Below, in pieces: positions 44,467 to 59,914 of a DNA stretch of 64,000 bases (the first letter of the stretch is position 1; each line of letters begins with the position of its first letter). Source of the DNA: an uncultured Alphaproteobacteria bacterium. GTDB lineage: Bacteria; Pseudomonadota; Alphaproteobacteria; HIMB59; GCA-002718135. The notes under the pieces were generated by a model that was given only the letters and a program-made list of their open reading frames with translations, had not been told where the DNA came from and made no database searches. The stretch covers positions 3,113 to 67,112 of the forward strand of contig CACDIK010000003.1 in the NCBI GenBank assembly GCA_902553005.1, in the 5' to 3' direction. The translations under genes and the position numbers were made by a program.

Positions 44467-45276
44467 TTATTTTATACCCGAAGTTGCAAAACTCTCTACA
44501 AACTGTCTTTGAAAAATAATAAATGCAATTATTAGTGGTGCGGTTACCATTAATGTCCCTGCGCTTATAGTAGCCCACTCGATACCTGATTCCTCCATAG
44601 AAAAGATAGCTAAACCAACATTTAAAATTCTAGTTTCCTCTGAGTTAGTTATTATTAAAGGCCACAAATAATTATTCCAATGATAAGATATTGATACAAG
44701 TCCATAAGCTAAAAAAGTAGGTATAGATAATGGTATGTAAACATGCCATAAAATTCGTAATGCTCCAGCACCATCAATCCTCGCAGAATCATCTAGCTCT
44801 TTTGGAACAGTTTTGAAAGCTTGTCTTAAAACAAAAATTCCAAAAGCAGATGCAATGTAGGGAAGGCTAATTGCAGGAATGGTATCTATCAAATTTAAGA
44901 ATTTAATTGTTTTATAATTTTCGATAAGAATGATTTCTGGATTAATCATTAGTTGAATTAAAACTAATCCAAAAAGTATGTTCTTAAAAGGAAACTCATA
45001 TCTTGCAAAAGCAAATGCAGTCAGAGAACATAAGATAAACTGGCATGAAGTGGTCATTGTAACGTATATAAATGTGTTGAACATATATCTTGCAAAAGGA
45101 GCTTGTGACCAAGCATTTTCAAAATTGTATAAGGTCAGAGGGGCAAACAAATCAAATTTAACTTGATATTCTATTGGGTGTATCGAAGCCCAGATTGCAT
45201 ATAAGAGCGGTAGTAACCATAAAAATCCAAGTAACCAAGCACCAATAATATTAATATTTTTATAGAATGAATACAT
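44467..45276 (-). CDS. ABC transporter permease (MalG/UgpE-type)
   Basis: 269 aa with the EAA loop DDSARIDGAGALRILWHVYIP. Confidence 0.85.
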   Translation of the reverse strand: MYSFYKNINIIGAWLLGFLWLLPLLYAIWASIHPIEYQVKFDLFAPLTLYNFENAWSQAPFARYMFNTFIYVTMTTSCQFILCSLTAFAFARYEFPFKNILFGLVLIQLMINPEIILIENYKTIKFLNLIDTIPAISLPYIASAFGIFVLRQAFKTVPKELDDSARIDGAGALRILWHVYIPLSIPTFLAYGLVSISYHWNNYLWPLIITNSEETRILNVGLAIFSMEESGIEWATISAGTLMVTAPLIIAFIIFQRQFVESFATSGIK

Positions 45277-45278
45277 TT

Positions 45279-46157
45279 TTATTGGTAATGGACCTTTCTA
45301 TCCAATAAAAAAATTTGACCAATTCCTATTATTGACAATAATATAATTAGTAAAACCGATAATGTTATTGCGTATGCTGTATCCCAAAATTCAAAACCAT
45401 TCTCATAAATATAATAGAGTAATAAAGCGCTGTTGTAATTTGGACCTCCACCAGTCATAGTGAATAAATGTTCTATTCGTGTAAAGGCAGTAATTACTGC
45501 ATTGACTGAAACAAATAATAAGGTTGGTGTTATCATTGGTAGTGTAATTTTGTAAAACATTTGCCAACTATTAGCCCCTTCAATAATTGCTGCCTCTTTC
45601 ATTTCCCTAGGTATTCCTTGAAGAGCAGCTAGAAAAAAAATCATGTAAAAACCAGACTCTTTCCAAATACTTACAGCAATAATACCCCATAAAACTTGAT
45701 CAGGGTTTCCTAAAATATTTGTATTTTGGAAACCAAATAAAGATCCAACTTGATCAATTAATCCAAAACCAGGAAGAAAAAAAAAGAGCCATATATTACC
45801 AACAGCTATTAAGGGTAAAACTACAGGTAAAAAATATGCAAAACGAAGCAATGGTCTACCGGGTAACTTGCTGTTTACCCATTGCGCCATAATTATTGCA
45901 ATAATTATTGAAGATGGGATTGTAGAAATTGCATAAACAATATTGTTAGACATAACCTTCCAAAAAATGGGGTCTGAAAACATATGTTCATAATTTTCAA
46001 TACCTTTAAACTTACTTGGTTTTCTCCCTTTAGGAGTAGAAAAAAAACTCATATAAATTGTTTTAACAACAGGTATGTGAACAAAAGTTAATAATAATAT
46101 GAATCCAGGCGATAAAAGTAAAATTACTGGTATATGTTTTTTAATTTTAGTTATCAT
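45279..46157 (-). CDS. ABC transporter permease (MalF/UgpA-type)
   Basis: 292 aa with the EAA loop KEAAIIEGANSWQMFYKITLP. Confidence 0.85.
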   Translation of the reverse strand: MITKIKKHIPVILLLSPGFILLLTFVHIPVVKTIYMSFFSTPKGRKPSKFKGIENYEHMFSDPIFWKVMSNNIVYAISTIPSSIIIAIIMAQWVNSKLPGRPLLRFAYFLPVVLPLIAVGNIWLFFFLPGFGLIDQVGSLFGFQNTNILGNPDQVLWGIIAVSIWKESGFYMIFFLAALQGIPREMKEAAIIEGANSWQMFYKITLPMITPTLLFVSVNAVITAFTRIEHLFTMTGGGPNYNSALLLYYIYENGFEFWDTAYAITLSVLLIILLSIIGIGQIFLLDRKVHYQ

Positions 46158-46190
46158 AAAAAAAACGGCACTATTATTAACTAGTGCCGT
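46158..46190 (-). terminator. Intercistronic hairpin plus T-run after the binding-protein gene
   Basis: The minus strand reads ACGGCACTA-(8 nt)-TAGTGCCGT followed by 8 T, running straight into the permease ATG. Confidence 0.65.
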
Positions 46191-46204
46191 TTGATATTTT
46201 TTCT

Positions 46205-47479
46205 TTATCTGTAATCTTTTAGTATTTTATCAATTTCGGCATGCGCCTCTAAAAGAGCAGTTTTAGGATCTTTTTCCCCAGCAACTGCTGCTTCTAACGC
46301 TCTATTAAAAATTGAAACAGTTTTAGGTTGCTCGTAGGTCGAAAATTCTGGACCTGCATACTCCAACTGATCTCTTGCAACAGCTGGATATGGAAATTCT
46401 TTTAAAAATTCTTTCATTTCATCAGACTCCCAAGTCTCAGCTCTAGGTGCAACATAACCAGTGGCTTTTGTCCAGGCAACAGACTGTTTAGGTTCTGTTA
46501 TCCATTTTACAAAGTCTTTTGTTGCTTGCTGTTCCTCTTCTGTAGTGTCAATTGATAGATAAAAATTTCCTCCTCCAACTGGTGCTCCAAATTGTTTAAT
46601 ACCAGGAATGAAAGCTACACCCCAATCAAACGGAGCATTATTTCTGACGTTTGTCAGATTTCCAGTAGTAGTCCACATCATTGCAGTTTGACCCTCAAAA
46701 AATGCCTGTGGAGTAGATCCCCATTCAAGTATACCTGGTCTCATCACCCCTTCAGTAGTACTAAGAGCTACAAGTTTTTCTAATGCTTCAATGGCTTCTG
46801 GTGAATTAATATATGTTTCAGTGCCATTATCGTTCATAATTTTTCCACCATTGCCATAAACAATTGCACTAAATAACCAGTATGGAAAACCAGCAGATGG
46901 AATTCTTATTCCGTATTGACTTACATTTCCATCAGAATCTTTGATTGTTAATTTTTTTGCAACTTCTAGCTGTTCATCCCAAGTCTTAGGTGGATTTTCA
47001 GGATCTAATCCCGCAGCTCTAAAAGCATCCTTATTGTAATAGAGTACTGGTGTTGATCTTTGAAATGGAATCCCATAAGTTTTACCATCAACTTGACCAT
47101 TAGCCATAAAAGCAGGATAAAAACCACCTATCCAATTATCAATTTCGTCTTGAGTTAATATATCGTCCCAAGCCATTACACATTCTTCGTCTATATATTT
47201 AAAAATTGTAACAGCAATCATAACTGATGTTGCAGGAGCTGTTCCAGATTTACATGCTGTTAGAAATTTAGTATCTGTATCTGTATAACTTCCTGTGAAA
47301 ACAGCTTTCACATTTACATCTGGATTTAATTTTGTGTAATCTTCTGCAAATTTCTCAATTGCCTGAGCAGCTCCACCACCTACAGCGACTGGAAAATAAA
47401 ATTCTAGGTCAATAGCCCTTACACTTAATGATGTTATTACCACGGTTAAAGAGATAATAAGTAATTTAATTATATTCAT
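46205..47479 (-). CDS. Periplasmic solute-binding protein, family 1 (UgpB-like), substrate unknown
   Basis: 424 aa with a signal peptide and the family-1 SBP architecture. It heads two MalFG-type permeases. Confidence 0.8.
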   Translation of the reverse strand: MNIIKLLIISLTVVITSLSVRAIDLEFYFPVAVGGGAAQAIEKFAEDYTKLNPDVNVKAVFTGSYTDTDTKFLTACKSGTAPATSVMIAVTIFKYIDEECVMAWDDILTQDEIDNWIGGFYPAFMANGQVDGKTYGIPFQRSTPVLYYNKDAFRAAGLDPENPPKTWDEQLEVAKKLTIKDSDGNVSQYGIRIPSAGFPYWLFSAIVYGNGGKIMNDNGTETYINSPEAIEALEKLVALSTTEGVMRPGILEWGSTPQAFFEGQTAMMWTTTGNLTNVRNNAPFDWGVAFIPGIKQFGAPVGGGNFYLSIDTTEEEQQATKDFVKWITEPKQSVAWTKATGYVAPRAETWESDEMKEFLKEFPYPAVARDQLEYAGPEFSTYEQPKTVSIFNRALEAAVAGEKDPKTALLEAHAEIDKILKDYR

Positions 47480-47620
47480 TATAAATCTCCTATTTTTATC
47501 AATGAAATTTTTTTGGTTAAGATATAAATATTAATATTTTGTTAAATTTTAACTAATTTATTTTTAAATTTTTTAATTCTTTTTTATTATTTTTTTTTTA
47601 TGTATATTTAGTAAATATTT

Positions 47621-48415
47621 ATGATGAAAATTATTCACCTCTCTGACCCCCATATTCATACAAATGAATTATTTGGCATAAACTCCGTAGAAAGATTCAA
47701 ATGTGCTTTAGAACACATTGTTTTAAATCACCGTGATGCAGATATGTTTGCTATAACTGGTGATATAACGGACATTGGAGATGAAGATTCTTACAATCTG
47801 TTTAAAAAAATAATAAAAGAATTTAATCTACCCCTAAACCTTGAACCAAAACTAATACCTGGTAATCATGACAATCGTGAAAATTTTAAAAAAACTTTAA
47901 ATCATGTGCCAACTGATAGTAATGGATTTATCCAATACTACGATGACTATAAGAATAATAGATTTATTTTTATAGATACTCTAGAGCACGGAACACACAT
48001 TGGTCATTATACGTTAAAAAGACAAGAATGGTTGATTGATCTTTTAAATAACACAGATGATAATAAAGAAATTTATATATTTATGCACCATAATCCATTG
48101 GCACTGGTTAGAGATGAAAGCGATGGTATTGGATTAAAACATAAAAAAGAATTTAAAGAAATATTGATTAGTAAAAAAAATATTAAACATATTTTTTTTG
48201 GTCATCAGCATATTACTAGTTCCGGATCATATCTTGGTATAAGTTTTTCCTCGCCAAGGAGCACATGGTCACCTCTAATACCAAATTTTTCATCTGAATA
48301 TAGGCTTGGTTTAGCTAATACTGATCCAAATTACAATGTAGCAATTTTAAATAAAAATGGAATAGTAATTCATACTGAAGATTTTTTAAAAACAGAAGTT
48401 AATTGGTTTAAATAA
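47621..48415 (+). CDS. Calcineurin-like metallophosphodiesterase (GpdQ/CpdA-like)
   Basis: 264 aa with the motifs HLSDPH, GDITD, GNHD, MHH and GHQH in GpdQ order. It is divergent from the UgpB-like operon. Confidence 0.75.
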   Translation: MMKIIHLSDPHIHTNELFGINSVERFKCALEHIVLNHRDADMFAITGDITDIGDEDSYNLFKKIIKEFNLPLNLEPKLIPGNHDNRENFKKTLNHVPTDSNGFIQYYDDYKNNRFIFIDTLEHGTHIGHYTLKRQEWLIDLLNNTDDNKEIYIFMHHNPLALVRDESDGIGLKHKKEFKEILISKKNIKHIFFGHQHITSSGSYLGISFSSPRSTWSPLIPNFSSEYRLGLANTDPNYNVAILNKNGIVIHTEDFLKTEVNWFK

Positions 48416-48418
48416 AAA

Positions 48419-49525
48419 TTATTTTTTTTCGATTACAAATATTTCATTGTTAAAATAAAGACCTTTATTTTTAGCAACAATGTTTTGGACTACTTTTTCG
48501 TAATTTTTTGTTTTTTCTACCTTCATTACTTTTTCGTCATCCATTTGATTGACATATATGGAGGCATTCCAAGCAGAAAAAACTAATGATGTCGCTATAC
48601 CTCCACTGATTTCTGTTGGTAGAGCTCTCAATTTACATTTAATAATTCTTTTTTCTCCAAAAGATAAACTTCTTAATAAATCTTTATCTAAATTTTTCTT
48701 AAGATAAGAAATGATACTATTTCCAAGAGAAGGAAAAGGGTCCTCTTTTGGCCAAATTTTACGAATTATTTCATTAGCAGGATCTTTTCCTGAAGCATGA
48801 ATAGTTAATAATTTCCCTTTTGATTTTAACGCTCTGATCATTGGTTCGATGACATATTTTGATTTCTTTTCTGCTGTGATTCTTGAACGATACGGCTGTG
48901 AAGCAATAATAAGATCAAATTTATTATCTGATTTTTTTTTGGTAGGTATTAATTCATTTACATTAAATTCTTGATCTTCGCGGTAGATAACCATGACTGA
49001 AGGCTCTTTATAAGTATGGTTACCTGACTTTTTATTAATTTCTATATTCCATTTTTTTTCTAAAAATTCATTTTGTTTTCTTAATTGTTGGGCAAATTCA
49101 AGAGAGGTATCTCCTTTTAATTTAATAATATTCCAATTAATTTTTTTCTGTTTAACTTCATTTTTTGATTTTAGGTTTGCAGCTTCAGCGTAGTGTAGAT
49201 TTGAAATGACAAAAACCGTATTCTTATGTTCAACAAACCTGTCGGGTAATTTTTCTAAACCTAATCTTACATCTTCTATGCTTATTTCTTTTGTGCAAAC
49301 TAATAGAGGTACGTTAGGCTTAGCCTCGTGGCACTGACGCATAACATTCATAAGTAAGGAACCATCACCCATACCAGCATCAAATATTTTTATACCAGGT
49401 TTTTGAGGTTTAATTTTATTTACGTGAGGACGTATCGCATCAGCAATTTGATTTTTTTCATTTGTTGTTGTGACAAATAATAAGTATTTTTGTCTGTTAT
49501 CATAAAACCTGAAATTTTTTTTCAT
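48419..49525 (-). CDS. Uncharacterised protein with a class-I SAM-methyltransferase-like glycine loop
   Basis: 368 aa with IFDAGMGDGS (motif I-like), an acidic residue after beta-2 (CTKEIS), and DLIIASQPY. It is the last gene of the SBP/MetE-like/ADH operon, with a 2-nt gap. Confidence 0.4.
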   Translation of the reverse strand: MKKNFRFYDNRQKYLLFVTTTNEKNQIADAIRPHVNKIKPQKPGIKIFDAGMGDGSLLMNVMRQCHEAKPNVPLLVCTKEISIEDVRLGLEKLPDRFVEHKNTVFVISNLHYAEAANLKSKNEVKQKKINWNIIKLKGDTSLEFAQQLRKQNEFLEKKWNIEINKKSGNHTYKEPSVMVIYREDQEFNVNELIPTKKKSDNKFDLIIASQPYRSRITAEKKSKYVIEPMIRALKSKGKLLTIHASGKDPANEIIRKIWPKEDPFPSLGNSIISYLKKNLDKDLLRSLSFGEKRIIKCKLRALPTEISGGIATSLVFSAWNASIYVNQMDDEKVMKVEKTKNYEKVVQNIVAKNKGLYFNNEIFVIEKK

Positions 49526-49527
49526 TA

Positions 49528-50640
49528 CTAATAAAGTCCCATTGATTTAGCAGAAGAGATGAAGGCTTCTTTATTGCCAATAAAGTTTTTACCTCGTTCC
49601 CCTAAAAACGCATCATCTACTATATTATTCCATTCTTGAACAGGAACTTTTATTTCATTTAAGTTTAGAGGAACCTCTAAAGAACGCATAAATTCACTCA
49701 GATGATTTGCGGCATTCTCTAGGCTATCGTTAAAAATTAATTTTAGTCTCTCCTCAGCTACACTATCAATTCCAACCATACTTTTAGTAATCATGGGTAA
49801 AGTAAATGAACAAGCAATACCATGCTGAATACCGTAATTGAGTGTCACAGGGTAAGATAGATTGTGCGCAATAGCAGTTTTCGTATTGGAAAACGCTAAG
49901 CCAGCATGAACGCATGCCAGTGCAATGTTTGAGCGTAATTCAACATTTCTTAAATCTTTAGTGAGAAGTGGTAAAGTTTCTAATACTAATTTTGATGCTT
50001 GTATTGCATGAGAAGCAGAAACTGGGTTTGCATTAATATTCCAAATACTTTCCATTGAATGGGAGAGAGTATCTAAACCTGTTGAAATGGTCAAACCTAA
50101 AGGCTTATCAACCATAATAGATGGGTCAATAATTGTTTTTTCTGCATAAAGAGATTTGTGCGCCAAAGATAATTTATTATTTTTTTCTTTATCCCATATT
50201 GTGGCCCAACACGTAAGCTCACTTGATGTTCCTGAAGTTGTAGGTACTGCAATAATCTTGATTGGATTTTCGACTCTTGGATTTTTCTTATTGCGAACGA
50301 AATCTGTTAGATATTCTTGTTTATCTTTAAATGCAGCAATTGCTTTAGCTGTGTCTGTAACAGAGCCACCACCTATAGCTAAAATATAATCTACCGATTC
50401 ATTGATTGAAGAAAATTTATTTTGTAGCTCTAAAATATCCTTATAATCTGGATTAGGCTGAACATCAGTCATAATGGATAAAGGTGGATTTGAAGAAGAT
50501 TTTAATTCATTGCTATATTTTTTAAAAATTTCTTCTGGATGAGTAATTATGATGTAGTTCTTATTTTTAAGAGCATCATGTACTTCTTTAAATCTATTTT
50601 CTCCAAAGATAATTTCAACAGGGTTAAAATAATTCCACAT
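49528..50640 (-). CDS. Iron-containing (group III) alcohol dehydrogenase; phosphonoacetaldehyde/2-hydroxyethylphosphonate oxidoreductase candidate
   Basis: 370 aa with the GGGSVTDTAKA NAD(P) motif and His-rich metal ligands (LDTLSHSMES, AIAHNLSYP). The family assignment is firm; the substrate is inference from context. Confidence 0.75.
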   Translation of the reverse strand: MWNYFNPVEIIFGENRFKEVHDALKNKNYIIITHPEEIFKKYSNELKSSSNPPLSIMTDVQPNPDYKDILELQNKFSSINESVDYILAIGGGSVTDTAKAIAAFKDKQEYLTDFVRNKKNPRVENPIKIIAVPTTSGTSSELTCWATIWDKEKNNKLSLAHKSLYAEKTIIDPSIMVDKPLGLTISTGLDTLSHSMESIWNINANPVSASHAIQASKLVLETLPLLTKDLRNVELRSNIALACVHAGLAFSNTKTAIAHNLSYPVTLNYGIQHGIACSFTLPMITKSMVGIDSVAEERLKLIFNDSLENAANHLSEFMRSLEVPLNLNEIKVPVQEWNNIVDDAFLGERGKNFIGNKEAFISSAKSMGLY

Positions 50641-50644
50641 TACA

Positions 50645-51724
50645 TTAAATTGATTTTGCCGCTTTAGTTAAAATTGTCATTTTCTCAATTGCTTGTTCTC
50701 GCGTAAAGAAACCTAAACCACAATCTGGTGCAGCTATTAAACGGTGTTCATCAATATGCTCTAAAGAATCTTTCATACGAACTCTAACTTCTTCTACTGT
50801 CTCCATTCTGCTTTTAGCAATGTCAATAAATCCAAAAATAACTTTTGTTTTTGTAAATTTTTCTAAAAGATTTAAGTCATTATGTCTGTGGGAGTCTTCT
50901 AAGGATACTTCGTCAATTGTAGAGTCATCTACTAAAGTAGCAATTCTATCATAAGCATCTAATTCTGCTTTCTTGTATCCATGAGAATCTAAGGAATTTG
51001 GATAACCACAACAGATATGACAAACTCGTTGAACTTCTTTTGGAATACCATGCATCATTCTTTCCAAGTTTTCCATACCATAAGCATTGGCCTCATCGGG
51101 TTTTCTTGCAAAAACTGGTTCATCAATTTGTATGTATTGACAACCAGCATCAGCTAGAGCTTTTACCTCTTTGTTTAGAGCCAAAGCTAAATCAAAACCA
51201 AGTTTTTTCATGTCATCATAGTAATTATTAGCAATAGAATCTGTAATTGTCATTGGTCCTGGGAGAGTTATTTTAACTGGATTTTTTGTAAATTGCTGAG
51301 CACTTTTCCAATCTATATGCATACGAATTTCTTTACTTGAAATTGGAGCTACTATCGTTGGAAGATCAGCTTCAAAGGCTCCTTGCCGTACAGATTTATG
51401 AGTTACCTCTTTAAAACTTACACCGTTTAAAAAACGACATTGATATAAGACATAACTTTCACGTCTTACTTCTCCATCAGTTGGAACATCAATTCCCGCA
51501 TTTACCTGATCAATAATAACCTCTTTAATTGCTTCTAAAAATAATTTTTCTGCTTCTTCACCTGCTGACTCTAATGCCTTTTCATACGCACCTGGAGACC
51601 AATTAGATAAAAGTCCTTTTGAAGCTTTTCTCTCTTCTTCTGATTTTGTCCCTAAAAACCAATCTTGAATCGGCGTCTGTTTTGGTTTTGGATATGCACC
51701 TATGGTAGTAGTTGTAAGAGGCAT
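50645..51724 (-). CDS. MetE C-terminal-domain-like (Meth_synt_2) zinc-dependent alkyl/methyl-transferase
   Basis: 359 aa, starting TTTIGAYPKP like short MetE-like proteins. Its Zn/thiol-activation pattern is H-x-C (CHICCGY), E (SLEDSH) and D-C-G (APDCGLGF). Confidence 0.65.
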   Translation of the reverse strand: MPLTTTTIGAYPKPKQTPIQDWFLGTKSEEERKASKGLLSNWSPGAYEKALESAGEEAEKLFLEAIKEVIIDQVNAGIDVPTDGEVRRESYVLYQCRFLNGVSFKEVTHKSVRQGAFEADLPTIVAPISSKEIRMHIDWKSAQQFTKNPVKITLPGPMTITDSIANNYYDDMKKLGFDLALALNKEVKALADAGCQYIQIDEPVFARKPDEANAYGMENLERMMHGIPKEVQRVCHICCGYPNSLDSHGYKKAELDAYDRIATLVDDSTIDEVSLEDSHRHNDLNLLEKFTKTKVIFGFIDIAKSRMETVEEVRVRMKDSLEHIDEHRLIAAPDCGLGFFTREQAIEKMTILTKAAKSI

Positions 51725-51746
51725 GACTTATTCTCCCAAATATCTT

Positions 51747-51779
51747 AAAATAAAACAGCGGCTTTTATAAAGCCGCTGT
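51747..51779 (-). terminator. Hairpin plus T-rich run after the binding-protein gene
   Basis: The minus strand reads ACAGCGGCTT-TATAA-AAGCCGCTGT followed by TTTATTTT. It lies between the SBP stop and the MetE-like start. Confidence 0.65.
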
Positions 51780-51806
51780 AATAAAAAGTTAACAATAAAG
51801 TAATCT

Positions 51807-53060
51807 CTATAAAAGATCCTCTATTTCTTCCATCATCTCTTCTTGAAGATCAGCCATATTATCTGCACTACCTGTAGCAATTTCTTCAGTGTAATCATAG
51901 ATTACCTGAGTTATTGCTAGACCGTTTTCACCAGGATATGCAAACCAATCAGCCAATAAAGGTAATTGATTTACAGCAGTTAGCTTGTTTGGATTTTTAG
52001 TATAAAAATCACCTAACAAATCATTGGCTGCTTTATTTGGTGGAACATATCCAGTAGTTTCAGCAACTAAAGCTGCACCTATACCAGAAGTGATAAACTT
52101 TAAGAAAGTCCATGCAGCATCTACTCTTGCTGGATCATCAGATGTAGAAACCAACATCGCAGCATTTCCACCCGCTGGAAGTCTTGCTGGAGTTCCTCCA
52201 TTTACACCTGGCATTCCTGGAAATGGTGCTGTTTTAAGTTCAAAATCTGCTTTGGCTGCGTTTACTGAACCTAAGCTTGATGTTGACCAGAAAAACATAC
52301 CAATAGTGCCTGCATTAAATGCAGCTTGACCGTCAGCAATTGAATAGTTTGGCATATTACAACCACTCATTATGTCATGCATTTGTTGTAAAGTTGCTAG
52401 ACCAGCATCTCCACCCATATTAACAGCACCATCTTTTACCATTGGAACATTTTGGGTATGCATTAATGCTTGGTGAAACCAGTTACCTGTAATATTCCAA
52501 CCAAAATATAAAGTTCCTTTTCCAGCTGCTTCTAATTTATTACAAGCTGCGATAACTTCGTCCCAGTTAGTTGGGATGTTATCTATACCTGCTTCAGCTA
52601 ATAGATCCATGTTATAGTATCCAACTGGTGTTGATACAGAAAATGGTAACCCATATACGTCACCACCAAAGGTAGATAGACTTAACATAGCAGAGTGATA
52701 ACCATCTTTTTCAAAGTCAGCTTCTCCTGCAATAAAAGGCTCTAATGATTTTGCAATCCCTTTATCAACAAGTGGTGCTTGTCTGTTAAGACCTTGCATC
52801 GTTACATCTGGTAAATTACCTGAAGTAGACTCTCTGAAGATTGTTGCGGTTGCATCTTCATAGTTTTCATAAGTTGCCCTAAATTTAACTTGAATATCTG
52901 GATGTGCTTTTTCAAACTCCGGCATAATAGCTTGAAAGGTAACATCAAATAATCCAGAATAAGGATAAGCTACTTCTATTTCTATAGACTTAACTGAATT
53001 AACAGAACCATAAAAACCAAAAGCTAATACGGCTGCCAATCCTGTAATTAATTTTTTCAT
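51807..53060 (-). CDS. Periplasmic solute-binding protein, family 1 (UgpB-like); candidate organophosphonate binding protein
   Basis: 417 aa with a signal peptide and family-1 SBP architecture. It lies between phnA-phnY and the MetE-like operon, opposite an ABC ATPase and two permeases. Confidence 0.75.
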   Translation of the reverse strand: MKKLITGLAAVLAFGFYGSVNSVKSIEIEVAYPYSGLFDVTFQAIMPEFEKAHPDIQVKFRATYENYEDATATIFRESTSGNLPDVTMQGLNRQAPLVDKGIAKSLEPFIAGEADFEKDGYHSAMLSLSTFGGDVYGLPFSVSTPVGYYNMDLLAEAGIDNIPTNWDEVIAACNKLEAAGKGTLYFGWNITGNWFHQALMHTQNVPMVKDGAVNMGGDAGLATLQQMHDIMSGCNMPNYSIADGQAAFNAGTIGMFFWSTSSLGSVNAAKADFELKTAPFPGMPGVNGGTPARLPAGGNAAMLVSTSDDPARVDAAWTFLKFITSGIGAALVAETTGYVPPNKAANDLLGDFYTKNPNKLTAVNQLPLLADWFAYPGENGLAITQVIYDYTEEIATGSADNMADLQEEMMEEIEDLL

Positions 53061-53197
53061 TTAATCCTCCCGATTGAATATAATAATTTAATCTAACATG
53101 TACCCTTATAGGGTTACAATTTTATTACGAAAATATTACTAAAAAATAGGCTTATTTTTCCACAGTATTAGAGAAAATTAGAGAAAAACTGATTTAT

Positions 53198-54640
53198 TTA
53201 CCAAGGTAGCGAAAAGGTTTTTACATTAGTAAAACTTTTCATCGCTTCAATAACACCCTCTTTGTAACCAAGACCTGAATCTTTAATTCCTCCAAAAGGA
53301 GACATTTCAATTCTGTAGCCTGGAACCTCCCAAATATTTACTGTACCAACATTTAAACCTTGAATATATTTTTTTGCTCGCATGAAATTATTTGTACATA
53401 CACCAGATGATAATCCGAATGCGGTTGAATTAGATATTTTCATTACAGCTACATCGTCATTAGGCACACGAATGATTGGAATAACCGGACCAAAAGTTTC
53501 TTCTAAAACTAATTCACTTTTAGGATCAACATTGTCTACTACTATTGGAGGCAACAACGCACCCTTTCTTCCAGGATGATATAAAATTTTTGCACCATCT
53601 TCTTGCGCCATAGAAACTCTTTTATCAAAAAGTTCCGCAGCTTCAGCATTAACAACAGTACCTAAGTCTGTTTCCATATTCATAGGATCACCAAATTTAA
53701 TTTTCTTAGCACGCTCAAGAGCCATTTCAACAAATTGATCTGCAATGGATTCTTGAACCAGTATTCTTTTAACAGCTGTACAACGTTGACCAGAGTTTTT
53801 CGTTGCTCCAGTAACAGCTAGCTCAACTGCTTTTTTAAGATCATCACCATCTAAGTCATTTAAAACAATTAGTGGATCATTACCACCAAGCTCTAGAACT
53901 GTTCTTTTGTATCCAGCTTGTTCAGCAATTAATTTTCCTACACCTACACTGCCTGTAAAAGTAATTAGATCAATGTTTGGATTTTTGATCATTTCTGATC
54001 CGATATCTTGAGGCCATCCAGTTACAACTGAAAACATTTCTGGTGGCAGACCTGCTTCATATAAAACATCAGCGAGTACCATTGCTGTTAAAGGTGTTAA
54101 TTCTGTCTGCTTACATACTGTACAATTATTAGTAGCAATTGAAGGCGCAATTTTATGCGCTACCATATTCAAAGGGTGATTAAATGGAGTGATTGCTGAG
54201 ATTGCCGTTAAAGGTTCTCTTATGGTAAATATTTTTCTCGCTTTTCCATGCGGAGTTAAATCACAAGAAAATATTTCTCCATCATCAAGAATACAAAGTT
54301 GAGCCGTCAAAGAAAATACATCAAAAGCTCTTCCTACTTCGTATAGAGAATCTTGTTTTGAGATACCAAGTTCTAAAGTAATAATATCAGAAATTTCTTC
54401 TTTTCTTTTAACAAGTACTTCTGCAGCAGTTTGAAGAATTTTTTGTCTCTCATATCTTGTAAGTTTAGATTGGTAATTTGCAGCAATATCTAAAGCCTTT
54501 CTTGCATGCTCTGCAGTACCGGCAGGGACCGTGCCGATTACTTCACCTGTAAAAGGGTACTCAACATTTATTGTTTTATCTGAAGTAACTTTTTCTCCAG
54601 CTATACGCATTGCTTCATTAATCATTTTTTTGTGCATCAT
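53198..54640 (-). CDS. phnY: Aldehyde dehydrogenase, PhnY-type phosphonoacetaldehyde dehydrogenase candidate
   Basis: 480 aa with ALDH motifs (ELGGNDP, catalytic Cys in GQRCTAV). It has a 4-nt overlap with phnA, the known PhnW/PhnY/PhnA arrangement. Confidence 0.75.
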
Positions 54641-55878
54641 AGGGCTCCGTTAATTGCATAGTAAAATGCATCATAGTTATATAATTGTTTGCTAGTATCT
54701 ATGTTTTGTAATTTTAAATTTGATATGAATGGCACTTCTCTTTCATGAAGTCCACCGTGTGAACGTAAAGGTTCATTTAATCCAGAAAGATTGTGTTTAT
54801 CTTCCGATGAACCAATAGTCATAAATTCTGAAGACATACATATTATGTCTCCCATTCTATCAGGGGGTAAGTTATAAGTAGAGCATCCTTCGTCTTTTGT
54901 TAAAACAACTTCTATATCTTTTATTTCTTTGATAGCATTTACAACTGAATCTATCTTGCTCTTGTCTTCTAAATAAATTGTTGCAAAAGAACCTAGTGAA
55001 CCATGATGCACGACATATGGATCTGTAATTGGTAGAATAACTTTAGCCATGTTTTGTTCAAATTTATTATCTAAATAATCTTGTAAAAATATTGCATTAG
55101 GTGAACCATCTTCTTTTGATTTTGGTTTCATACCGTGATCTGCTGTAATGATTATAGAAACATTCTCCTTATTTAAAAGACCAATATATTTATCAAACAT
55201 TGCATAAAATTTATTTGCTGTTTCATTTCCTGGTGCATATTTGTGTTGAATATAATCCGTAGTCGATAAATACATGATATTTGGTTTGAACTCTTCAAGA
55301 AGCTTTACACCTGCGGCCATTACAAATTCAGAAAGTCCTTCAGAGTATACTTCTGGCACTGGCATTCCCAACCAATCGTTTACATTATCTATACCATTGA
55401 GATCTTTTGTTGCTTGATCAGATTTTTCAGCAGAAAAACAAATAGCTCTCTCATCATCAAAACTTAATCCGTTTCCTAAAAGTGTTCTCAGCTTATCTTT
55501 TGCAGTAACAAGAGCTATTTTAGAACCAGAATTATAAAATTTTTCAAAAATAGTTGGTGCTCGCATATATTTTGGGTCATTCATCATTACTTCTTCACCA
55601 GTCTCGGGTGTATAAAAGAAGTTTCCGCATATACCGTGAACAGAACTTGGCTGCCCAGTTACAATGGAAATATTATTAGGATTTGTAAAACTTGGAATAG
55701 CGCTGTGAACAAGTAGGTTTTCACCACTTGCAATTAGTTTATCAAGATTTGGCGTAAGATTTGATTTTGATGCTTCGTCGAGATACTCTTTTTGACTACC
55801 ATCAAGACATATAACAATAGCAGTTTTTGAGAAAGAGCTTGGATATTCTCTTTTATTAATTTCTAAATTATCGGACAC
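54637..55878 (-). CDS. phnA: Phosphonoacetate hydrolase (alkaline-phosphatase/NPP superfamily)
   Basis: 413 aa with a GTG start and NPP-type motifs (VICLDG, FTNPNN, TADHGM, HGG). It is coupled to phnY. Confidence 0.75.
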
Positions 55879-55967
55879 GACTTCAACTAATATATATCAT
55901 TAAAAATAAGAATTTATAGTTATCTGCTAGTTAAACTCAATCATAATTTGAATATTTGTTAATAAAA

Positions 55968-56000
55968 TTGAAATAAAACTGAAATAATTAGATTTATAAT
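55968..56000 (+). promoter_or_regulatory. Candidate Pho box plus -10 element for the ABC importer operon
   Basis: TTGAAAT-AAAA-CTGAAAT (a 7-4-7 direct repeat with 11-bp period) is followed after 9 nt by TATAAT (55995-56000). This is the same geometry as E. coli Pho promoters. Confidence 0.4.
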
Positions 56001-56057
56001 ATTCTCAAATTTAATAAAATTTTGTAGATTAAATATAATTATAAGGGGGGAGATTAA

Positions 56058-57197
56058 GTGGGCACAATATCACTTAAAAATATTTCAAAGTCATTTGGAT
56101 CTACGCAAGTATTAAACAATTTAAATGTTGATATACAAGATGGCGAATTTTTAACATTAGTTGGTCCATCTGGTTGTGGTAAATCCACCTTACTCCGAAT
56201 CATTGCAGGATTAGAACAACAAACTTCAGGTGATGTATTAATTGATAATAAGAATGTAAATAAAATTAGAGCCAGCGAGCGAGATCTTGCAATGGTATTT
56301 CAATCATACGCTTTATATCCTCATTTAACGGTACGAAGAAATTTAGAAACACCTTTAAGACTGAGAGATTATAATGCTTTTGAACGCCTTCCTTTAATAG
56401 GGAATTTTTCTCCAAACAAAAAAAGTAAAACTGAGTCTATCAATCAATTAGTTAATAAAACATCTGAAACACTTCAGATTTCTGAACTACTGGATAGAAA
56501 ACCAGGACAATTATCAGGAGGCCAAAGACAAAGAGTAGCTCTTGGTCGCGCAATGGTAAGAGAACCTGTTGCATTCTTAATGGATGAACCTCTATCAAAT
56601 TTAGATGCCGCTCTAAGAGTGCACATGCGATCTGAATTATCAGAACTTCACAATTCACTTAAAACAACATTTGTTTATGTAACGCATGATCAAGCAGAAG
56701 CATTGACAATGTCTTCTCGTATGGCGGTAATGATTGATGGAAATTTATTACAACTAGATACACCTCAAGAAGTTTATGATAATCCTTCATCATTAAGTGT
56801 TGCTCAATTTGTTGGTAGTCCTAAAATAAATATTTTTAATGGATCTTCAGATTCTAGTGGAACTGTTAATTTTTTAAATGTTAACCTGAAAAGAAAAAGT
56901 TCTGAAAGTAATTCAGATTTACACATAGGAATTCGACCAGAACATTTAGAAATTACTAATGATAAAGATGAAAACACATTTGGTGGCACTGTTGCTTACA
57001 GAGAAAATTTAGGATCAGATATATACTTCCATGTTAATATAGAAGACAACTCAAAAAAAATAATTGTAAGAGGCTTACCTCAATTTACACATCAAATTAC
57101 AAATGGTTCAAGTGTAAATATCAAGAGAGATTCAAATAAAGCATTGTTATTTAATCAAACAGGGATGAGGATTCATTTTAATAATGCAATGGGATAA
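56058..57197 (+). CDS. ABC transporter ATPase (UgpC/MalK-type with a C-terminal regulatory/TOBE domain)
   Basis: 379 aa with a GTG start preceded by AAGGGGGGAG, plus [23 protein letters not shown] and MDEPLSNLD. Confidence 0.9.
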   Translation: MGTISLKNISKSFGSTQVLNNLNVDIQDGEFLTLVGPSGCGKSTLLRIIAGLEQQTSGDVLIDNKNVNKIRASERDLAMVFQSYALYPHLTVRRNLETPLRLRDYNAFERLPLIGNFSPNKKSKTESINQLVNKTSETLQISELLDRKPGQLSGGQRQRVALGRAMVREPVAFLMDEPLSNLDAALRVHMRSELSELHNSLKTTFVYVTHDQAEALTMSSRMAVMIDGNLLQLDTPQEVYDNPSSLSVAQFVGSPKINIFNGSSDSSGTVNFLNVNLKRKSSESNSDLHIGIRPEHLEITNDKDENTFGGTVAYRENLGSDIYFHVNIEDNSKKIIVRGLPQFTHQITNGSSVNIKRDSNKALLFNQTGMRIHFNNAMG

Positions 57198-57212
57198 GGA
57201 TAACATTTACTA

Positions 57213-58169
57213 ATGCATAATTCAAAGGCTCATCTATGGTTTATTGCCCCTGCAATAATACTCATGATAATTATTTTAATCTTTCCTCTTTTTCTTGCAG
57301 GTGGGATTTCCTTTACTGATTATAATTTAGGCAACAAAACATTTGAATGGATTGGGTTAGAGAACTATGACAAAATGTTTAACCGAAAAACTTATGTGAA
57401 AATGATTTGGGCGACAGCCACGTATGTAATTGTTGTGGTGCCTATTTCAGTTATACTTGGTTTATGTGCAGCGATGCTCTTAAATTCTCTACGATTTGGT
57501 GCTGACATATATAAAACTATTTTCTTTCTTCCAGTTATGGCGACGCTTCTGGCAATGGCTATTGCTTGGGAATTCACTCTTCACCCAACTCTTGGGATAG
57601 TAAATAATTTTTTAGCTAATGGTTGTGGTGGTGCAAGAGAATTTATTTTTGGTTTTCATTGGTTGCCATGGGTAGACTCAGAACAAAGTTGGTATGCAGT
57701 GGCGTGTGCAAATAACATGGACTTTCCTTATTGGTTAAAACAAAAAAATACTGCCATTTGGACTGTTTGTTTTATTGGAATATGGCAAGCCTTTGGTTTC
57801 AATATGGTTTTATATTTAGCTGGATTAACAGGTATACCAAGAGAACTATATCAAGCTGCAGAAATGGATGGAGCTAAATCAACATGGGAACAATTTAAAC
57901 TTGTAACATGGCCAATGCTTGGTCCAACAACTTTATTTGTTGTAACTATAACGACTATTAGAACCTTTCAAGTTTTTGATACAATTGAAATACTCACAAA
58001 AGGTGGTCCATCTAAAACAACCTACGTTATGATGTATGCAATTTTTGAAAAAGCTATTCAACAAAATTTAACAAGTATTGGTGCAGCTATCACAGTTGTC
58101 TTCATTGGATTTATATTGATATTAACTTTCTTCCAAAGATATATCATTGAGAAAAGGGTTCATTATTAA
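57213..58169 (+). CDS. ABC transporter permease (MalF/UgpA-type)
   Basis: 318 aa with the EAA loop YQAAEMDGAKSTWEQFKLVTWP. Confidence 0.85.
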   Translation: MHNSKAHLWFIAPAIILMIIILIFPLFLAGGISFTDYNLGNKTFEWIGLENYDKMFNRKTYVKMIWATATYVIVVVPISVILGLCAAMLLNSLRFGADIYKTIFFLPVMATLLAMAIAWEFTLHPTLGIVNNFLANGCGGAREFIFGFHWLPWVDSEQSWYAVACANNMDFPYWLKQKNTAIWTVCFIGIWQAFGFNMVLYLAGLTGIPRELYQAAEMDGAKSTWEQFKLVTWPMLGPTTLFVVTITTIRTFQVFDTIEILTKGGPSKTTYVMMYAIFEKAIQQNLTSIGAAITVVFIGFILILTFFQRYIIEKRVHY

Positions 58170-59062
58170 TGGAAGCTAAACAGTATATTGGGGAAGGTTG
58201 GAAACATGCAATATTGATTATTGGTGCAATTGTTGTGTTGTTGCCTTTTTATATGATGGTTTCAATGTCATTAAAATCTCAACAAGAAATTCAATCTATT
58301 TCTGGAGGTCTCATTGGTGCACAAGAAACTCAAACATTTCCCGTATGTGTAAAAACTGGATACTCAGAAGAAGAATGCACAATGAAACCATATAAATACA
58401 ACTATTGGTTTGCTTTCGAAAAGGCTCCCATTCCAAGATACTTGATGAATGGTGTTATTGTAACTTTATCAATTTTTATCATTCAGGTTCTTGTAGCCTT
58501 ACCGTGTGCCTACGCTCTGGCCAAACTTAGATTTTATGGACGAGAGTTTGTTTTCTCCATGGTGTTATTTTGTTTGCTCATTCCAGTTCATGGAATTGCA
58601 CTTCCCCTTTACGTCATGCTTGCTCAGGCAGGTTTGGTCGATACCTATTCCGCCTTAATACTGCCCTGGACAATATCGGTGTTTGGAATTTTTCTAATGC
58701 GGCAATTCTTTATGACAGTCCCAGATGAATTAATTGACGCCGCCAGGATGGATGGAATGGGAGAGTATGCTATCGTCTGGAAAGTAATGCTTCCAACTGC
58801 GATACCAGCATTACTTGCCTTTGCTATTTTCTCAGTAGTTGCACACTGGAATGATTATTTCTGGCCTCGAATGGTAATTACTGGAAATAGAGATCTCTTT
58901 ACACCACCTCTTGGTATCAGAGAATTTAGAGGTGGAATTGATAGTGATGAGTTTGGTCCAATGATGGCTTCAATTGTTACAGTTACAGTGCCTCTCATTG
59001 TCGCTTTTATAATTGCGCAAAAAAGATTTATTGAAGGAATTACTTTAACAGGAATGAAGTAA
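58169..59062 (+). CDS. ABC transporter permease (MalG/UgpE-type)
   Basis: 297 aa with the EAA loop IDAARMDGMGEYAIVWKVMLP. Its start overlaps the previous stop. Confidence 0.85.
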   Translation: MEAKQYIGEGWKHAILIIGAIVVLLPFYMMVSMSLKSQQEIQSISGGLIGAQETQTFPVCVKTGYSEEECTMKPYKYNYWFAFEKAPIPRYLMNGVIVTLSIFIIQVLVALPCAYALAKLRFYGREFVFSMVLFCLLIPVHGIALPLYVMLAQAGLVDTYSALILPWTISVFGIFLMRQFFMTVPDELIDAARMDGMGEYAIVWKVMLPTAIPALLAFAIFSVVAHWNDYFWPRMVITGNRDLFTPPLGIREFRGGIDSDEFGPMMASIVTVTVPLIVAFIIAQKRFIEGITLTGMK

Positions 59063-59071
59063 GATAGTCTT

Positions 59072-59914
59072 TTGTCTATCAATTTTATTTTTCTTTTAAT
59101 TATTTTATCTGCACTGTGTCACGCTATTTGGAGCGCCATAATTAAATCAAGTAAGAACCCGTTATCACTAATGGGAATTACTTCTATCTTAGAAGTAGTC
59201 ATTTTTTTACCATTAACTTTTACTGTTCCATTTCCGTCAATGGAAGTTTGGTATTTTCTAATAGCAACTGTAATCATTCATGTCTTCTACAGACTAAATG
59301 TTATCTACTCATATAGGTATGGTGATCTCTCTTACATATATCCAATTTCTAGAGGAAGTTCATGTTTGTTTGTAGCGATCATTAGTATTTTATTTTTAAG
59401 TTCTGATATTAGTGTTGTTGGTTTCGTAGGAATATTAATTGTTTGTATTGGATTATTTTTAATTTCTTATTCTAAAAATTTATCTTTTAACATCAGAGGT
59501 TTTGCTCTGGCCATATCAACAGCTATTCTAATTACTGCTTACACTTTAGTTGACGGAGTCGGGGTGAGACTTTCTGAAAATGGTTTTTCCTATATTTACT
59601 GGCTCTTCACACTTAATGGAATACCTTTGCTAATTATTGGTTTGATCTCGAAAGATGGTTTACGAAAAAGAAAAACATACACATTTAGATCGGGGATTGC
59701 TGCTGGTGTATTTGCAACAAGTAGTTACGCAATTGTTGTTTGGAGTATGCAATTTATAGAAATAGCTTATGTCTCTAGTATTAGAGAAATAAGCATTGTG
59801 TTTGCTGCAATTATTGGAATGCTTTTCTTATTTGAGAAGAATGCAAAATCTCGAATAATACCTTCTATTTTAATAGTGAGTGGTATTTCGGTTGTTTATT
59901 TTCAAATTCTTTAG
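59072..59914 (+). CDS. DMT/EamA-like 10-TM transporter
   Basis: 280 aa with a TTG start and a two-fold repeat of five hydrophobic helices. It begins 9 nt after the permease stop. Confidence 0.6.
   Translation: MSINFIFLLIILSALCHAIWSAIIKSSKNPLSLMGITSILEVVIFLPLTFTVPFPSMEVWYFLIATVIIHVFYRLNVIYSYRYGDLSYIYPISRGSSCLFVAIISILFLSSDISVVGFVGILIVCIGLFLISYSKNLSFNIRGFALAISTAILITAYTLVDGVGVRLSENGFSYIYWLFTLNGIPLLIIGLISKDGLRKRKTYTFRSGIAAGVFATSSYAIVVWSMQFIEIAYVSSIREISIVFAAIIGMLFLFEKNAKSRIIPSILIVSGISVVYFQIL

Follow-up and report, generated by a model that had tools for sequence, protein, structure and literature searches.

A MetE-like, putatively methyl-transferring protein encoded in a phosphonate-catabolic operon of a SAR11 phosphate-stress island

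The 64,000-nt stretch of contig CACDIK010000003.1 analysed here (hereafter the window, to which all coordinates refer) contains the phosphate-stress island of a SAR11 (Pelagibacterales) single-cell genome. On its minus strand the phosphonate-catabolic genes phnA and phnY are followed by genes for a periplasmic solute-binding protein (SBP), a MetE-like protein, an iron-family alcohol dehydrogenase (Fe-ADH) and a 368-aa protein of methyltransferase fold, and the ATPase and permease genes of an ABC importer are transcribed divergently from this operon. The MetE-like protein is a one-barrel relative of the methionine synthases, with close relatives encoded beside importer and catabolic genes, and we propose, tentatively, that it strips a methyl group from an imported organophosphorus compound.

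Genes and features of the locus

The window has a G+C content of ~30%. Proteins identical (100%) to its MetE-like protein are encoded in two SAR11-type single-cell genomes, AG-333-K22 and AG-461-E22, and homologues of the 368-aa protein carry the name Candidatus Pelagibacter. The features that enter the argument are given here with their family matches.

54637-55878, minus strand: PhnA, phosphonoacetate hydrolase (TIGR02335, 468.6 bits, cut-off 407.6; PF01663)
53198-54640, minus strand: PhnY, phosphonoacetaldehyde dehydrogenase (TIGR03250, 794 bits, cut-off 635.7)
51807-53060, minus strand: SBP, periplasmic, of the CUT1/UgpB-like class (PF01547, SBP_bac_1; PF13416, SBP_bac_8)
51755-51779, minus strand: GC-rich hairpin with 11-bp stem and T-run, terminator- or attenuator-like, 3' of the SBP gene
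50645-51724, minus strand: MetE-like protein, 359 aa, a one-barrel 'core' methionine-synthase homologue, MesD-like (PF01717, 122 bits)
49528-50640, minus strand: PhpC-type Fe-ADH (PF00465, 121.9 bits; PF25137; TIGR03405)
48419-49525, minus strand: 368-aa protein with class-I methyltransferase fold (AlphaFold2 model and Foldseek; motif I DAGMGDG)
55879-56057: divergent intergenic region between phnA and the ABC ATPase gene, AT-rich, the presumed shared promoter and regulatory region
56058-57197, plus strand: ABC ATPase of UgpC/MalK type, first gene of the divergent importer operon (PF00005, TOBE_2)
57213-58169 and 58169-59062, plus strand: two ABC permeases (PF00528 in each)
59072-59914, plus strand: EamA-family membrane protein of the 'phosphonate utilisation associated' type (PF00892; TIGR03340 phn_DUF6, 143.5 bits, under the cut-off of 288)
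47621-48415, plus strand: Metallophos class-III phosphodiesterase, SpdA/CpdA-like, convergent with the operon, a candidate de-esterifying enzyme (PF00149, 61.5 bits)
42718-43815, plus strand: PhnW, 2-aminoethylphosphonate:pyruvate transaminase (NF010006, 511.5 bits, cut-off 296; TIGR02326, 459 bits, cut-off 401)

The open reading frames (ORFs) of PhnA and PhnY overlap by 4 nt, and the remaining genes are separated by spacers of 137 nt (PhnY-SBP), 82 nt (SBP-MetE-like), 4 nt (MetE-like-ADH) and 2 nt (ADH-368-aa). An earlier note on this DNA had described these ORF coordinates and gaps, the overlap, the hairpin and the divergent ABC genes (56058-59062), all of which agree with the ORF map. The hairpin sits inside the 82-nt spacer and reads ACAGCGGCTTT-ATA-AAAGCCGCTGT, followed by the T-run; its folding energy is -18.1 kcal/mol (z = -4.75) and none of 200 shuffled sequences folds equally well. 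A scan of 47000-60500 against Rfam, judged by E-values, returned no credible family, the divergent intergenic region included. A riboswitch or other RNA element between the genes was rejected, the Rfam scan giving nothing credible and the hairpin being a plain terminator-like stem. In the divergent intergenic region a promoter scan gave sigma-70-like matches at chance rate only.

The PhnA-PhnY-ADH core

PhnY and PhnA both score above the curated equivalog cut-offs of their NCBIfam models and, judging from these assignments, the phosphonoacetaldehyde route very probably operates here. The best family for the ADH is TIGR03405 (Phn_Fe-ADH), matched over its full length with 362 bits, the next family reaching 153; the score lies below the curated cut-off of 423.7. 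PhpC-type enzymes are very divergent, with a mean identity of 39% (PMC13576164). Biochemical work has established the oxidation of 2-hydroxyethylphosphonate (HEP) to phosphonoacetaldehyde by PhpC-type Fe-ADHs (Piazza et al. 2026, PMC13576164), NAD-dependent oxidation having been demonstrated for the Paraburkholderia fungorum enzyme only, and phpC together with phnY-phnA (or phnX), often without phnW, forms HEP-specific catabolic clusters in several phyla (PMC13576164).

The window ADH stands in a degradative context, sharing one operon with PhnA-PhnY, and the same is true in two of the individual loci that we compared (L-numbers throughout), L009 and L073. Neither pepM nor aepY was found among the annotated window neighbours of the ADH gene. 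It is likely, on the strength of family match and context, that the window ADH is a HEP dehydrogenase. The earlier note had suggested that this enzyme feeds HEP into PhnY and PhnA, which the published PhpC biochemistry and the best match to TIGR03405 support; this ADH-PhnY-PhnA part is an already known route. Hence the note's broader statement, that no described pathway has this composition, fails for ADH, PhnY and PhnA and stands, in the literature searched, for the MetE-like component.

Published HEP clusters resemble the window in combining an ADH of the Phn_Fe-ADH group with PhnY and PhnA, in having no phnW inside the operon and in carrying transporter genes alongside (PMC13576164). The window differs in adding the MetE-like and methyltransferase-fold genes, neither of which is mentioned in the main text of that paper, in the sub-cut-off score of its ADH (362 against 424) and in encoding PhnW elsewhere in the island.

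The MetE-like protein

The motifs that the earlier note had pointed out are present, namely H236-I-C238, E276 and D334-C335-G336 in the MetE-like protein and D49-AGMGDG in the 368-aa protein. Its family assignments were upheld for PF01717 and PF00465; the 368-aa protein gave nothing against methyltransferase families beyond a sub-threshold match to Methyltransf_31.

All NCBIfam methionine-synthase models score far under their cut-offs for the MetE-like protein. The MetE model TIGR01371 gives 90.8 bits against a cut-off of 930 and aligns over model positions 454-750 only, and the MesD-type model NF006589 gives 198 bits against 392. Canonical MetE was rejected on these far too low scores and on architecture, with one barrel in 359 aa against two barrels in ~750 aa, the N-terminal of which contributes to the binding of methyltetrahydrofolate polyglutamate in MetE. 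The best PDB sequence match is 3RPD (Shewanella MesD, 158 bits), a structure solved with selenomethionine bound (PMC7857596). The AlphaFold2 model of the window protein (pLDDT 80) aligns with 3RPD in Foldseek at TM 0.77-0.81; the identity is 30% when the structural alignment is used and ~38% in the local alignment of the sequences.

MesD, together with MesX (DUF1852), is a folate- and B12-independent 'core' methionine synthase (Price et al. 2021, PMC7857596). The window protein shares with it a single (beta/alpha)8 barrel, the lack of a folate-binding domain, a His-Cys-Glu-Cys zinc site and Glu/Asp residues on the homocysteine amino group. In contrast to MesD, it has its own conserved N-terminal extension of ~60 residues and is encoded in importer and catabolic operons instead of in the company of MesX and flavin reductase; moreover, its identity to MesD is ~30-38% against at least 55% among MesD proper (PMC7857596). 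MesX (DUF1852, PF08908) was found neither among the scanned window neighbours nor among genes within 10 kb in L001-L006, L008, L167 and L168. MesD proper was rejected on the identity, the sub-cut-off score and the missing DUF1852 neighbour.

The window protein has the zinc ligands H236, C238, E276 and C335 and the homocysteine-binding residues E85 and D201, none of which varies across the family (residue roles from PMC7857596). At E <= 1e-30 the MetE-like protein is matched by ~140 clusters at 50% identity. We conclude from sequence and predicted fold that the protein is apparently of the core-methionine-synthase type, neither MetE nor MesD, and it seems somewhat more probable than otherwise that it acts as a homocysteine S-methyltransferase. 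Chemistry like that of epoxyalkane:CoM transferase was also considered and rejected: the aldehyde dehydrogenase and Pyr_redox_2 protein near a Magnetovibrio homologue are a succinate-semialdehyde dehydrogenase and a glutathione reductase, probably unrelated housekeeping genes.

Neighbourhoods of MetE-like relatives

We then considered relatives at least 50% identical to the MetE-like protein. Methionine contexts for the orthologues, which the earlier note had named as counter-evidence to look for, did not turn up: no methionine-biosynthesis context was found among the examined loci, the close relatives sitting elsewhere. Synteny with phn genes beyond SAR11 was likewise looked for and exists in other lineages. 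The ABC operon of the window recurs (SBP 60-66% identical), with the MetE-like gene following it, in gammaproteobacterial metagenome-assembled genomes (MAGs), in SAR324, in a Chromatiales symbiont and in Hyphomicrobiales, where a Metallophos gene lies between the SBP and MetE-like genes. A 368-aa homologue and a LysR gene are found just upstream of the MetE-like locus in Methyloligellaceae.

Phosphonate genes accompany the MetE-like gene in several arrangements. PhnW-PhnA-PhnY is divergent from ABC-MetE-like in L103, and a PhnA of 564 bits lies near the MetE-like gene in L101. The gene is convergent in L092 with those for a generic aldehyde dehydrogenase, a Zn-ADH (a partial, sub-cut-off match to TIGR03366, a model associated with phosphonate catabolism) and PhnA (516 bits), and stands in L090 beside a true PhnA and a generic aldehyde dehydrogenase; the aldehyde dehydrogenases of L090 and L092 are not PhnY-class. 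In L099 the MetE-like gene is accompanied by a HIBADH-type dehydrogenase, PhnD-C-E-E, PhnA and a partial aldehyde dehydrogenase that shares ~30% identity with the PhnY of the window. L073 holds PhnCDE, a Phn_Fe-ADH (421 bits, cut-off 424), a phosphonate-type LysR, a TRAP transporter and the MetE-like gene, the Fe-ADH lying ~5 kb from the latter, beyond the TRAP genes. PhnD, PHO4 and PhoU adjoin the operon in L167. Candidate HEP dehydrogenases of non-homologous families thus occur beside the MetE-like gene, these being an Fe-ADH (SAR11 and L073), a HIBADH-type enzyme (L099) and a Zn-ADH (L092), and three transporter classes (CUT1 ABC, PhnCDE and TRAP) accompany it. A separate and only distantly related Zn-ADH is present in L297, L301 and L320.

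The family is also found beside omega-amine enzymes that use pyridoxal phosphate (PLP), of AptA type in eight loci, GabT-like in L297 and L320, and PhnW in L103. In Geminicoccales the MetE-like gene precedes the CUT1 ABC operon, which continues into a GabT-like aminotransferase and a Zn-ADH. A MetE-like gene (~50% identical) ends a PotD-type ABC operon opened by an AptA-type omega-aminotransferase in Arenicellales, Thalassospiraceae and related MAGs (L116, L120, L123, L126, L129, L137 and L159; e.g. L123:213-14873). Most of these loci are flanked by genes for sulfoacetaldehyde acetyltransferase Xsc (935 bits), alanine dehydrogenase and a CoA-acylating semialdehyde dehydrogenase, which is a taurine/beta-alanine set; among about eight of them Xsc occurs in five and MMSDH in seven. 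An AAA-domain protein is also encoded there, and panC is nearby. These neighbours suggest an undescribed methyl-transfer step in aminosulfonate or beta-alanine-betaine catabolism. A clean division by sequence into phosphonate and sulfonate subfamilies was rejected, the gammaproteobacterial CUT1-linked members being equally close to the taurine-operon members and to the SAR11 protein. We found no description in the searched literature, that on taurine clusters included, of a MetE-like enzyme of phosphonate and sulfonate importer operons.

The importer and its partner genes

The binding protein matches only the general CUT1 Pfam families. Against the UgpB model NF008211 it scores 67.3 bits (cut-off 411) and so falls outside UgpB, and the ATPase scores 390 bits against the UgpC model NF008653, under the cut-off of 432. 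The best PDB relatives of the SBP are sugar- and glycerol-3-phosphate-binding proteins, UgpB proteins included. The importer resembles UgpBAEC in its CUT1 architecture, its MalK/UgpC-type ATPase and a Metallophos diesterase that is often adjacent (UgpQ or GpdQ in the known system). It differs in that the Ugp models remain under cut-off and in that its orthologues occur in phosphonate clusters with PhnA/PhnY, a GabT-like aminotransferase and Zn-ADH. The cargo is probably a small organophosph(on)ate.

A survey anchored on the SBP recovered 392 GTDB loci with orthologues (58-66% identical), the best 80 of which were examined, 59 having enough downstream sequence. Cultured strains are among the carriers of the importer, Thalassovita taeanensis DSM 22007 and Rhodobium orientis DSM 11290 being examples. 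Nearly all loci that are long enough show the genes arranged as ATPase-permease-permease(-SBP) (ATPase in 67 of 80, permeases in 73 and 76 of 80), and the window permeases are 59-72% identical to those beside orthologous SBPs in other phyla. The gene directly after the SBP (n = 59) encodes a GabT-like class-III aminotransferase in 23 cases, a Metallophos protein in 19, a MetE-like protein in nine, a Zn-ADH in three and something else in five; PhnA lies within 8 kb in seven loci. From these partner genes the importer appears to be a hub of organophosph(on)ate catabolic modules, with the MetE-like protein as one optional first-step enzyme.

In SAR324, Paracoccaceae and Geminicoccales (L251:2235-12229; L273:8001-17245; L297, L320) the genes after the CUT1 importer encode an aminotransferase of GabT/PuuE-like type (440 bits to 6wj8) and a Zn-ADH. 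In a SAR324 single-cell genome the order is ABC-SBP-aminotransferase-Zn-ADH-PhnA-PhnY. This combination may be a further aminoalkylphosphonate module.

In L002, L093 and L301 a 649-aa fusion of UroD and B12-binding domains, a corrinoid methyltransferase architecture, is encoded near the same ABC operon. It is divergent from the operon in L002 (16976-18925) and L301, and in L002 lies near MTHFR, DUF5981 and BCCT transporter genes. We take this architecture to resemble that of the chloromethane methyltransferase CmuA. The fusion is a hint, second and independent, that the cargo can carry a transferable methyl group.

The 368-aa protein

The AlphaFold2 model of the 368-aa protein (pLDDT 82, pTM 0.84) gives 192 PDB matches at E <= 0.001, with class-I methyltransferases leading, and confirms, as far as a predicted structure can, a class-I fold of the S-adenosylmethionine (SAM)-dependent methyltransferases. 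The top Foldseek match is histamine N-methyltransferase 1jqe (E = 3e-10, TM 0.42-0.55), with which it shares the Rossmann-type fold, the D-x-G-x-G-x-G motif I and an inserted lid region, and from which it differs in sequence (~13% identity) and in keeping the company of the methionine/SAM cycle. Motif I (DAGMGDG) occupies residues 49-55; throughout the family its conserved form is FDAGxGDG. None of the Pfam or NCBIfam models scored over its cut-off (Methyltransf_31 gave 19.5 bits, cut-off 27), and there was no PDB sequence match.

The family is found in 581 loci among GTDB species representatives, of which 80 from Gamma-, Alpha- and Betaproteobacteria were mapped. Its conserved neighbours there are an MTHFR-like (metF-type) gene in 28 loci, SAM synthetase in 18, a PfkB kinase in 13, S-adenosylhomocysteine hydrolase in 13 and formate-tetrahydrofolate ligase in eight; a distant MetE-type gene lies within 10 kb in 21 loci (a split MetE in the locus annotated), and in one examined locus the MTHFR-like gene is directly downstream of the 368-aa homologue. 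In Woeseiaceae, Steroidobacteraceae and other Proteobacteria (L169-L248; e.g. L169:10001-17598 and L181:544-3932), where the family is 60-72% conserved, it heads a methyl-cycle string of MTHFR-like, MetK, PfkB kinase, AhcY and formate-tetrahydrofolate ligase genes, often with a split MetE near.

Other SAR11 (L249:5840-9110 and L250:5844-9110) have a 68-70% identical copy in the core genome after metY and a gene for a 270-aa alpha/beta hydrolase, this metY being of the O-acetylhomoserine sulfhydrylase type and having hom and asd near it. Either the gene was relocated between core and island, or there are two paralogues; the window does not include the metY region, and sequence identities do not distinguish between the two.

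Given these neighbourhoods, the 368-aa protein is best regarded as associated with the methionine/SAM cycle and not as a phosphonate enzyme; the latter role was rejected once the family had been mapped. Arsenic methylation was also rejected, as the cysteines are not conserved. The earlier note had paired the 368-aa and MetE-like proteins in stripping methyl groups from a phosphonate. For the MetE-like half this remains plausible and has the support of context; the link of the 368-aa protein to phosphonates is weak, in view of its methionine/SAM neighbourhoods.

Distribution and modularity in SAR11

Of 60 closely related single-cell genomes of SAR11, ~56 show the gene order of the window. A second SAR11 clade, at ~70% identity, keeps the divergent ABC genes and PhnA-PhnY-SBP-MetE-like-ADH; it has a distant homologue of the 368-aa protein (33-40% identity) on the other side, beside an M24/creatinase-like gene. 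This recurrence argues that the arrangement is not due to chance. In one locus of the second clade (L070:56-2769) the distant homologue is followed by the M24/creatinase-like protein and an SMR transporter, and a SAM synthetase gene lies ~3.5 kb past the ADH.

Partial forms of the cluster indicate how it is assembled. L007 has PhnA-PhnY and the 368-aa gene only, L009 has PhnA-PhnY-ADH-368-aa, L001 has the ABC genes, SBP, MetE-like and ADH genes and no 368-aa gene, and L008, like the window, has the full set. By this comparison the ABC, SBP and MetE-like genes are gained or lost jointly, and the ADH gene independently of them. The EamA gene flanks SAR11 clusters whether the ABC genes are present or not. 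The phnW gene, 4.6 kb from the operon in the same island, is found in every full-length SAR11 locus, and the Metallophos gene (SpdA model NF050112, 162 bits, under cut-off) adjoins the operon in nearly all SAR11 loci. The cluster is carried by many SAR11 cells from tropical waters, and each of its protein clusters represents hundreds to a thousand metagenomic sequences.

Proposed role of the MetE-like protein

Betaine-homocysteine methyltransferase (BHMT) makes methionine by transferring a methyl group of an N-methyl ammonium compound to homocysteine, whose thiolate is activated by zinc. Its likeness to the MetE-like protein is one of function only and is drawn by analogy, the families being unrelated (PF02574, S-methyl_trans, against PF01717). 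BHMT is the methionine-forming enzyme reported in SAR11 (PMC12366255), and a BHMT-type gene is present, separately, in L009.

The CUT1-SBP importer probably takes up a small organophosph(on)ate; in our model the Metallophos diesterase would free the phosphonate when it is imported as an ester. The MetE-like protein would be a Zn-dependent homocysteine S-methyltransferase, MesD-like and without a folate-binding domain, taking its methyl group from the imported compound in methylated form; the likeliest donors would be N-methyl-, N,N-dimethyl- or N,N,N-trimethyl-2-aminoethylphosphonate, or the matching phosphate or glycerol-ester head groups. As in BHMT, the Zn-activated thiolate would attack the protonated or quaternary N-methyl ammonium, yielding methionine and a demethylated primary amine usable by PhnW. 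The remaining steps are well supported: phosphonoacetaldehyde, formed from 2-aminoethylphosphonate (AEP) by PhnW and, probably, from HEP by the ADH, is oxidised to phosphonoacetate by PhnY, and PhnA splits the latter into acetate and phosphate. The 368-aa protein would be a methionine/SAM-cycle accessory for methyl-group handling.

That the MetE-like protein strips a methyl group, most likely an N-methyl, from imported aminoethylphosphonate-type compounds, making methionine and feeding PhnW/PhnY/PhnA, is in our judgement a real possibility, at somewhat less than an even chance. We favour N-methyl because the commonest enzyme partners are omega-amine PLP enzymes (PhnW, AptA-type and GabT-like) and because an N-methyl ammonium is the type of donor handled by the BHMT zinc thiolate; the identification of the donor as an N-methyl-aminoethylphosph(on)ate is itself tentative. 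Since SAR11 is reported to lack both MetE and MetH (PMC12366255), methionine would be a real gain. More speculative, and doubtful as it stands, is the generalisation that the MetE-like protein founds a new class of importer-operon homocysteine-dependent demethylases, acting on the N-methyl groups of aminoethyl-phosphonates and, in the sister operons, on methylated taurine or beta-alanine derivatives, to give PhnW/Tpa-type substrates and methionine.

The TmpA and TmpB oxygenases act on trimethyl-AEP. For N-methylated AEPs, the FAD oxidases PbfB, PbfC and PbfD are ancillary enzymes that provide substrates for the PhnW/PhnX or PhnY-PhnA core (PMC13576164). Both routes are oxidative and discard the methyl carbon, whereas the present proposal keeps it as methionine. 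No DAO-family or TmpA gene was found in the window operon; a DAO gene is present in the related locus L001.

Several points weigh against the proposed demethylation. The support for MetE-like function, being drawn from genomes, is guilt by association throughout. Ser433 of E. coli MetE, which contacts the homocysteine carboxylate, corresponds to Ala10 in the MetE-like protein, so that a different thiol substrate is conceivable. Of the 59 SBP-anchored loci only 15 have the MetE-like gene, as befits an optional accessory, and the SBP is of a sugar/glycerol-phosphate class, not one known for quaternary amines, so that the cargo is not settled. The 4-nt coupling to the ADH and the recurrence of HEP-dehydrogenase candidates fit an O-methyl or methyl-ester form of HEP about equally. 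Finally, the known routes for N-methylated AEP use FAD oxidases or Fe oxygenases and no methyl transfer (PMC13576164), and MesD requires a partner protein and oxygen, its donor being unknown (PMC7857596).

Alternative explanations

The strongest alternative is that the MetE-like protein is a self-contained folate- and B12-independent methionine synthase like MesD, using an intracellular donor and perhaps the 368-aa protein as partner, its position in the island being regulatory or historical. MesD, the nearest relative so far characterised, does have a partner that is unrelated to it and a donor that is unknown; methionine/SAM-cycle genes accompany the 368-aa family in many Proteobacteria and other SAR11, and its gene lies near the MetE-like gene in SAR11 and Methyloligellaceae. 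The reported absence of MetE and MetH from SAR11 (PMC12366255) speaks for a methionine synthase too. However, relatives at least 50% identical end importer operons of three classes beside phosphonate or sulfonate catabolic genes, the 368-aa gene is not near the MetE-like gene in L001 and most non-SAR11 loci, and DUF1852 is absent from every annotated neighbourhood. We therefore consider a self-contained synthase unlikely, if still deserving attention.

The cargo might instead be methylated on oxygen, as a phosph(on)ate methyl ester or as 2-methoxyethylphosphonate, in which case C-O cleavage by the MetE-like protein would unmask HEP or the free phosph(on)ate and the Metallophos enzyme would hydrolyse other ester partners. 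Such a cargo would account for the translational coupling of the MetE-like gene to that of the HEP dehydrogenase (4-nt gap) and for the non-homologous HEP-dehydrogenase candidates that recur beside it where PhnW is absent from the locus (L099, L073 and L092). Among the enzyme partners of the importer a Metallophos-family diesterase is second in frequency only to the aminotransferase, and GpdQ, of that family, hydrolyses dimethyl phosphate and phosphonate monoesters. CmuA takes methyl groups from donors with good leaving groups, and the CmuA-like UroD-B12 fusion stands by the importer in three loci. An O-methyl cargo would nevertheless leave unexplained the pairing with aminotransferases and the taurine/beta-alanine operons, where methyl sulfonate esters are implausible, and the PhnD and TRAP partners of L099 and L073 suggest a free acid rather than an ester. 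We know of no natural O-methyl HEP derivative in seawater, and on balance think an O-methyl donor improbable.

It is similarly improbable that the operon serves a Ugp-like system, importing glycerophosphocholine or glycerophosphoethanolamine, with the Metallophos diesterase acting on the import, the MetE-like protein using a choline-type N-methyl (of phosphocholine or glycerophosphocholine), and the adjacent phn genes reflecting island packing. The SBP, ATPase and permeases are indeed most similar to Ugp components, with UgpB among the PDB relatives, a Metallophos gene directly follows the SBP in 19 of 59 loci, many loci have no phn genes, and a BCCT transporter adjoins the MetE-like gene in L002. 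Yet the SBP reaches only 67 bits against the UgpB cut-off of 411, and a more UgpB-like system (135 bits) is encoded in the same window. Within a single operon the SBP and MetE-like genes lie between phnY and the ADH gene, and the same importer is joined to true PhnA/PhnY, independently of SAR11, in SAR324, Paracoccaceae, gammaproteobacterial MAGs and L103.

Methylphosphonate as methyl donor, with phosphite leaving, was dismissed as chemically implausible and in the absence of a phosphite dehydrogenase.

Other features of the island

The island also encodes PHO4, a PhoU-like protein (PhoU_div), PhnW, an HD phosphonate oxygenase-like protein and a tyrosine-phosphatase-like protein. The gene next after phnW always encodes a protein of 210 aa that matches ureidoglycolate lyase (cupin-like) weakly, at 40 bits (window 42718-44455, plus strand), and the pair is kept in all SAR11 loci examined, with or without the rest of the cluster. 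We know of no role for a cupin-like protein of this sort in AEP catabolism. The HD-domain gene (42054-42629, within 41529-42629, minus strand) matches TIGR03276 with 202 bits (cut-off 215), TmpB with 157 and PhnZ1 with 153; it adjoins the dual-specificity/tyrosine-phosphatase-like gene and has no adjacent 2-oxoglutarate dioxygenase partner.

The more UgpB-like cassette (44467-47479, minus strand) consists of an SBP (135 bits to the UgpB model) and two permeases and lacks its own ATPase gene. As an insert between the Metallophos gene and the cupin-PhnW pair it is variable, only ~9 of 60 close SAR11 loci having it (examples are L020, L034, L038, L039, L042, L047 and L068).

At 60122-63237 the island is bordered by genes for a small FYDLN_acid-family protein, an MFS transporter and the methionine-sulfoxide reductase MsrQ-MsrP (MsrP 464 bits), a border that also flanks other examined SAR11 loci (L007, L009 and, in part, L001). 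The segment 10001-18000, with dense minus-strand ORFs and a G+C content of 23-27% against ~30-33% elsewhere, may be a SAR11 hypervariable (cell-surface) region.

Implications for SAR11

SAR11 is the most abundant heterotroph of the surface ocean, and it holds the newly described hydrolytic HEP route on top of its AEP genes. The 368-aa family can now be annotated as associated with the methionine/SAM cycle, and the CUT1 importer family as the apparent hub of organophosph(on)ate modules. The MetE-like protein may supply a new ancillary step in the catabolism of phosphonates and probably of sulfonates, a proposal that lends itself to testing. If it does demethylate imported aminoethylphosphonate-type compounds, one substrate would yield phosphate, nitrogen and the methyl group of methionine to SAR11, giving an organism with reduced methionine metabolism a cobalamin- and folate-independent methionine route fuelled by dissolved organic phosphorus. 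The methyl group of an organophosphorus compound would then be kept as methionine, directly linking the cycling of phosphorus, sulfur/methionine and one-carbon compounds in the sea.

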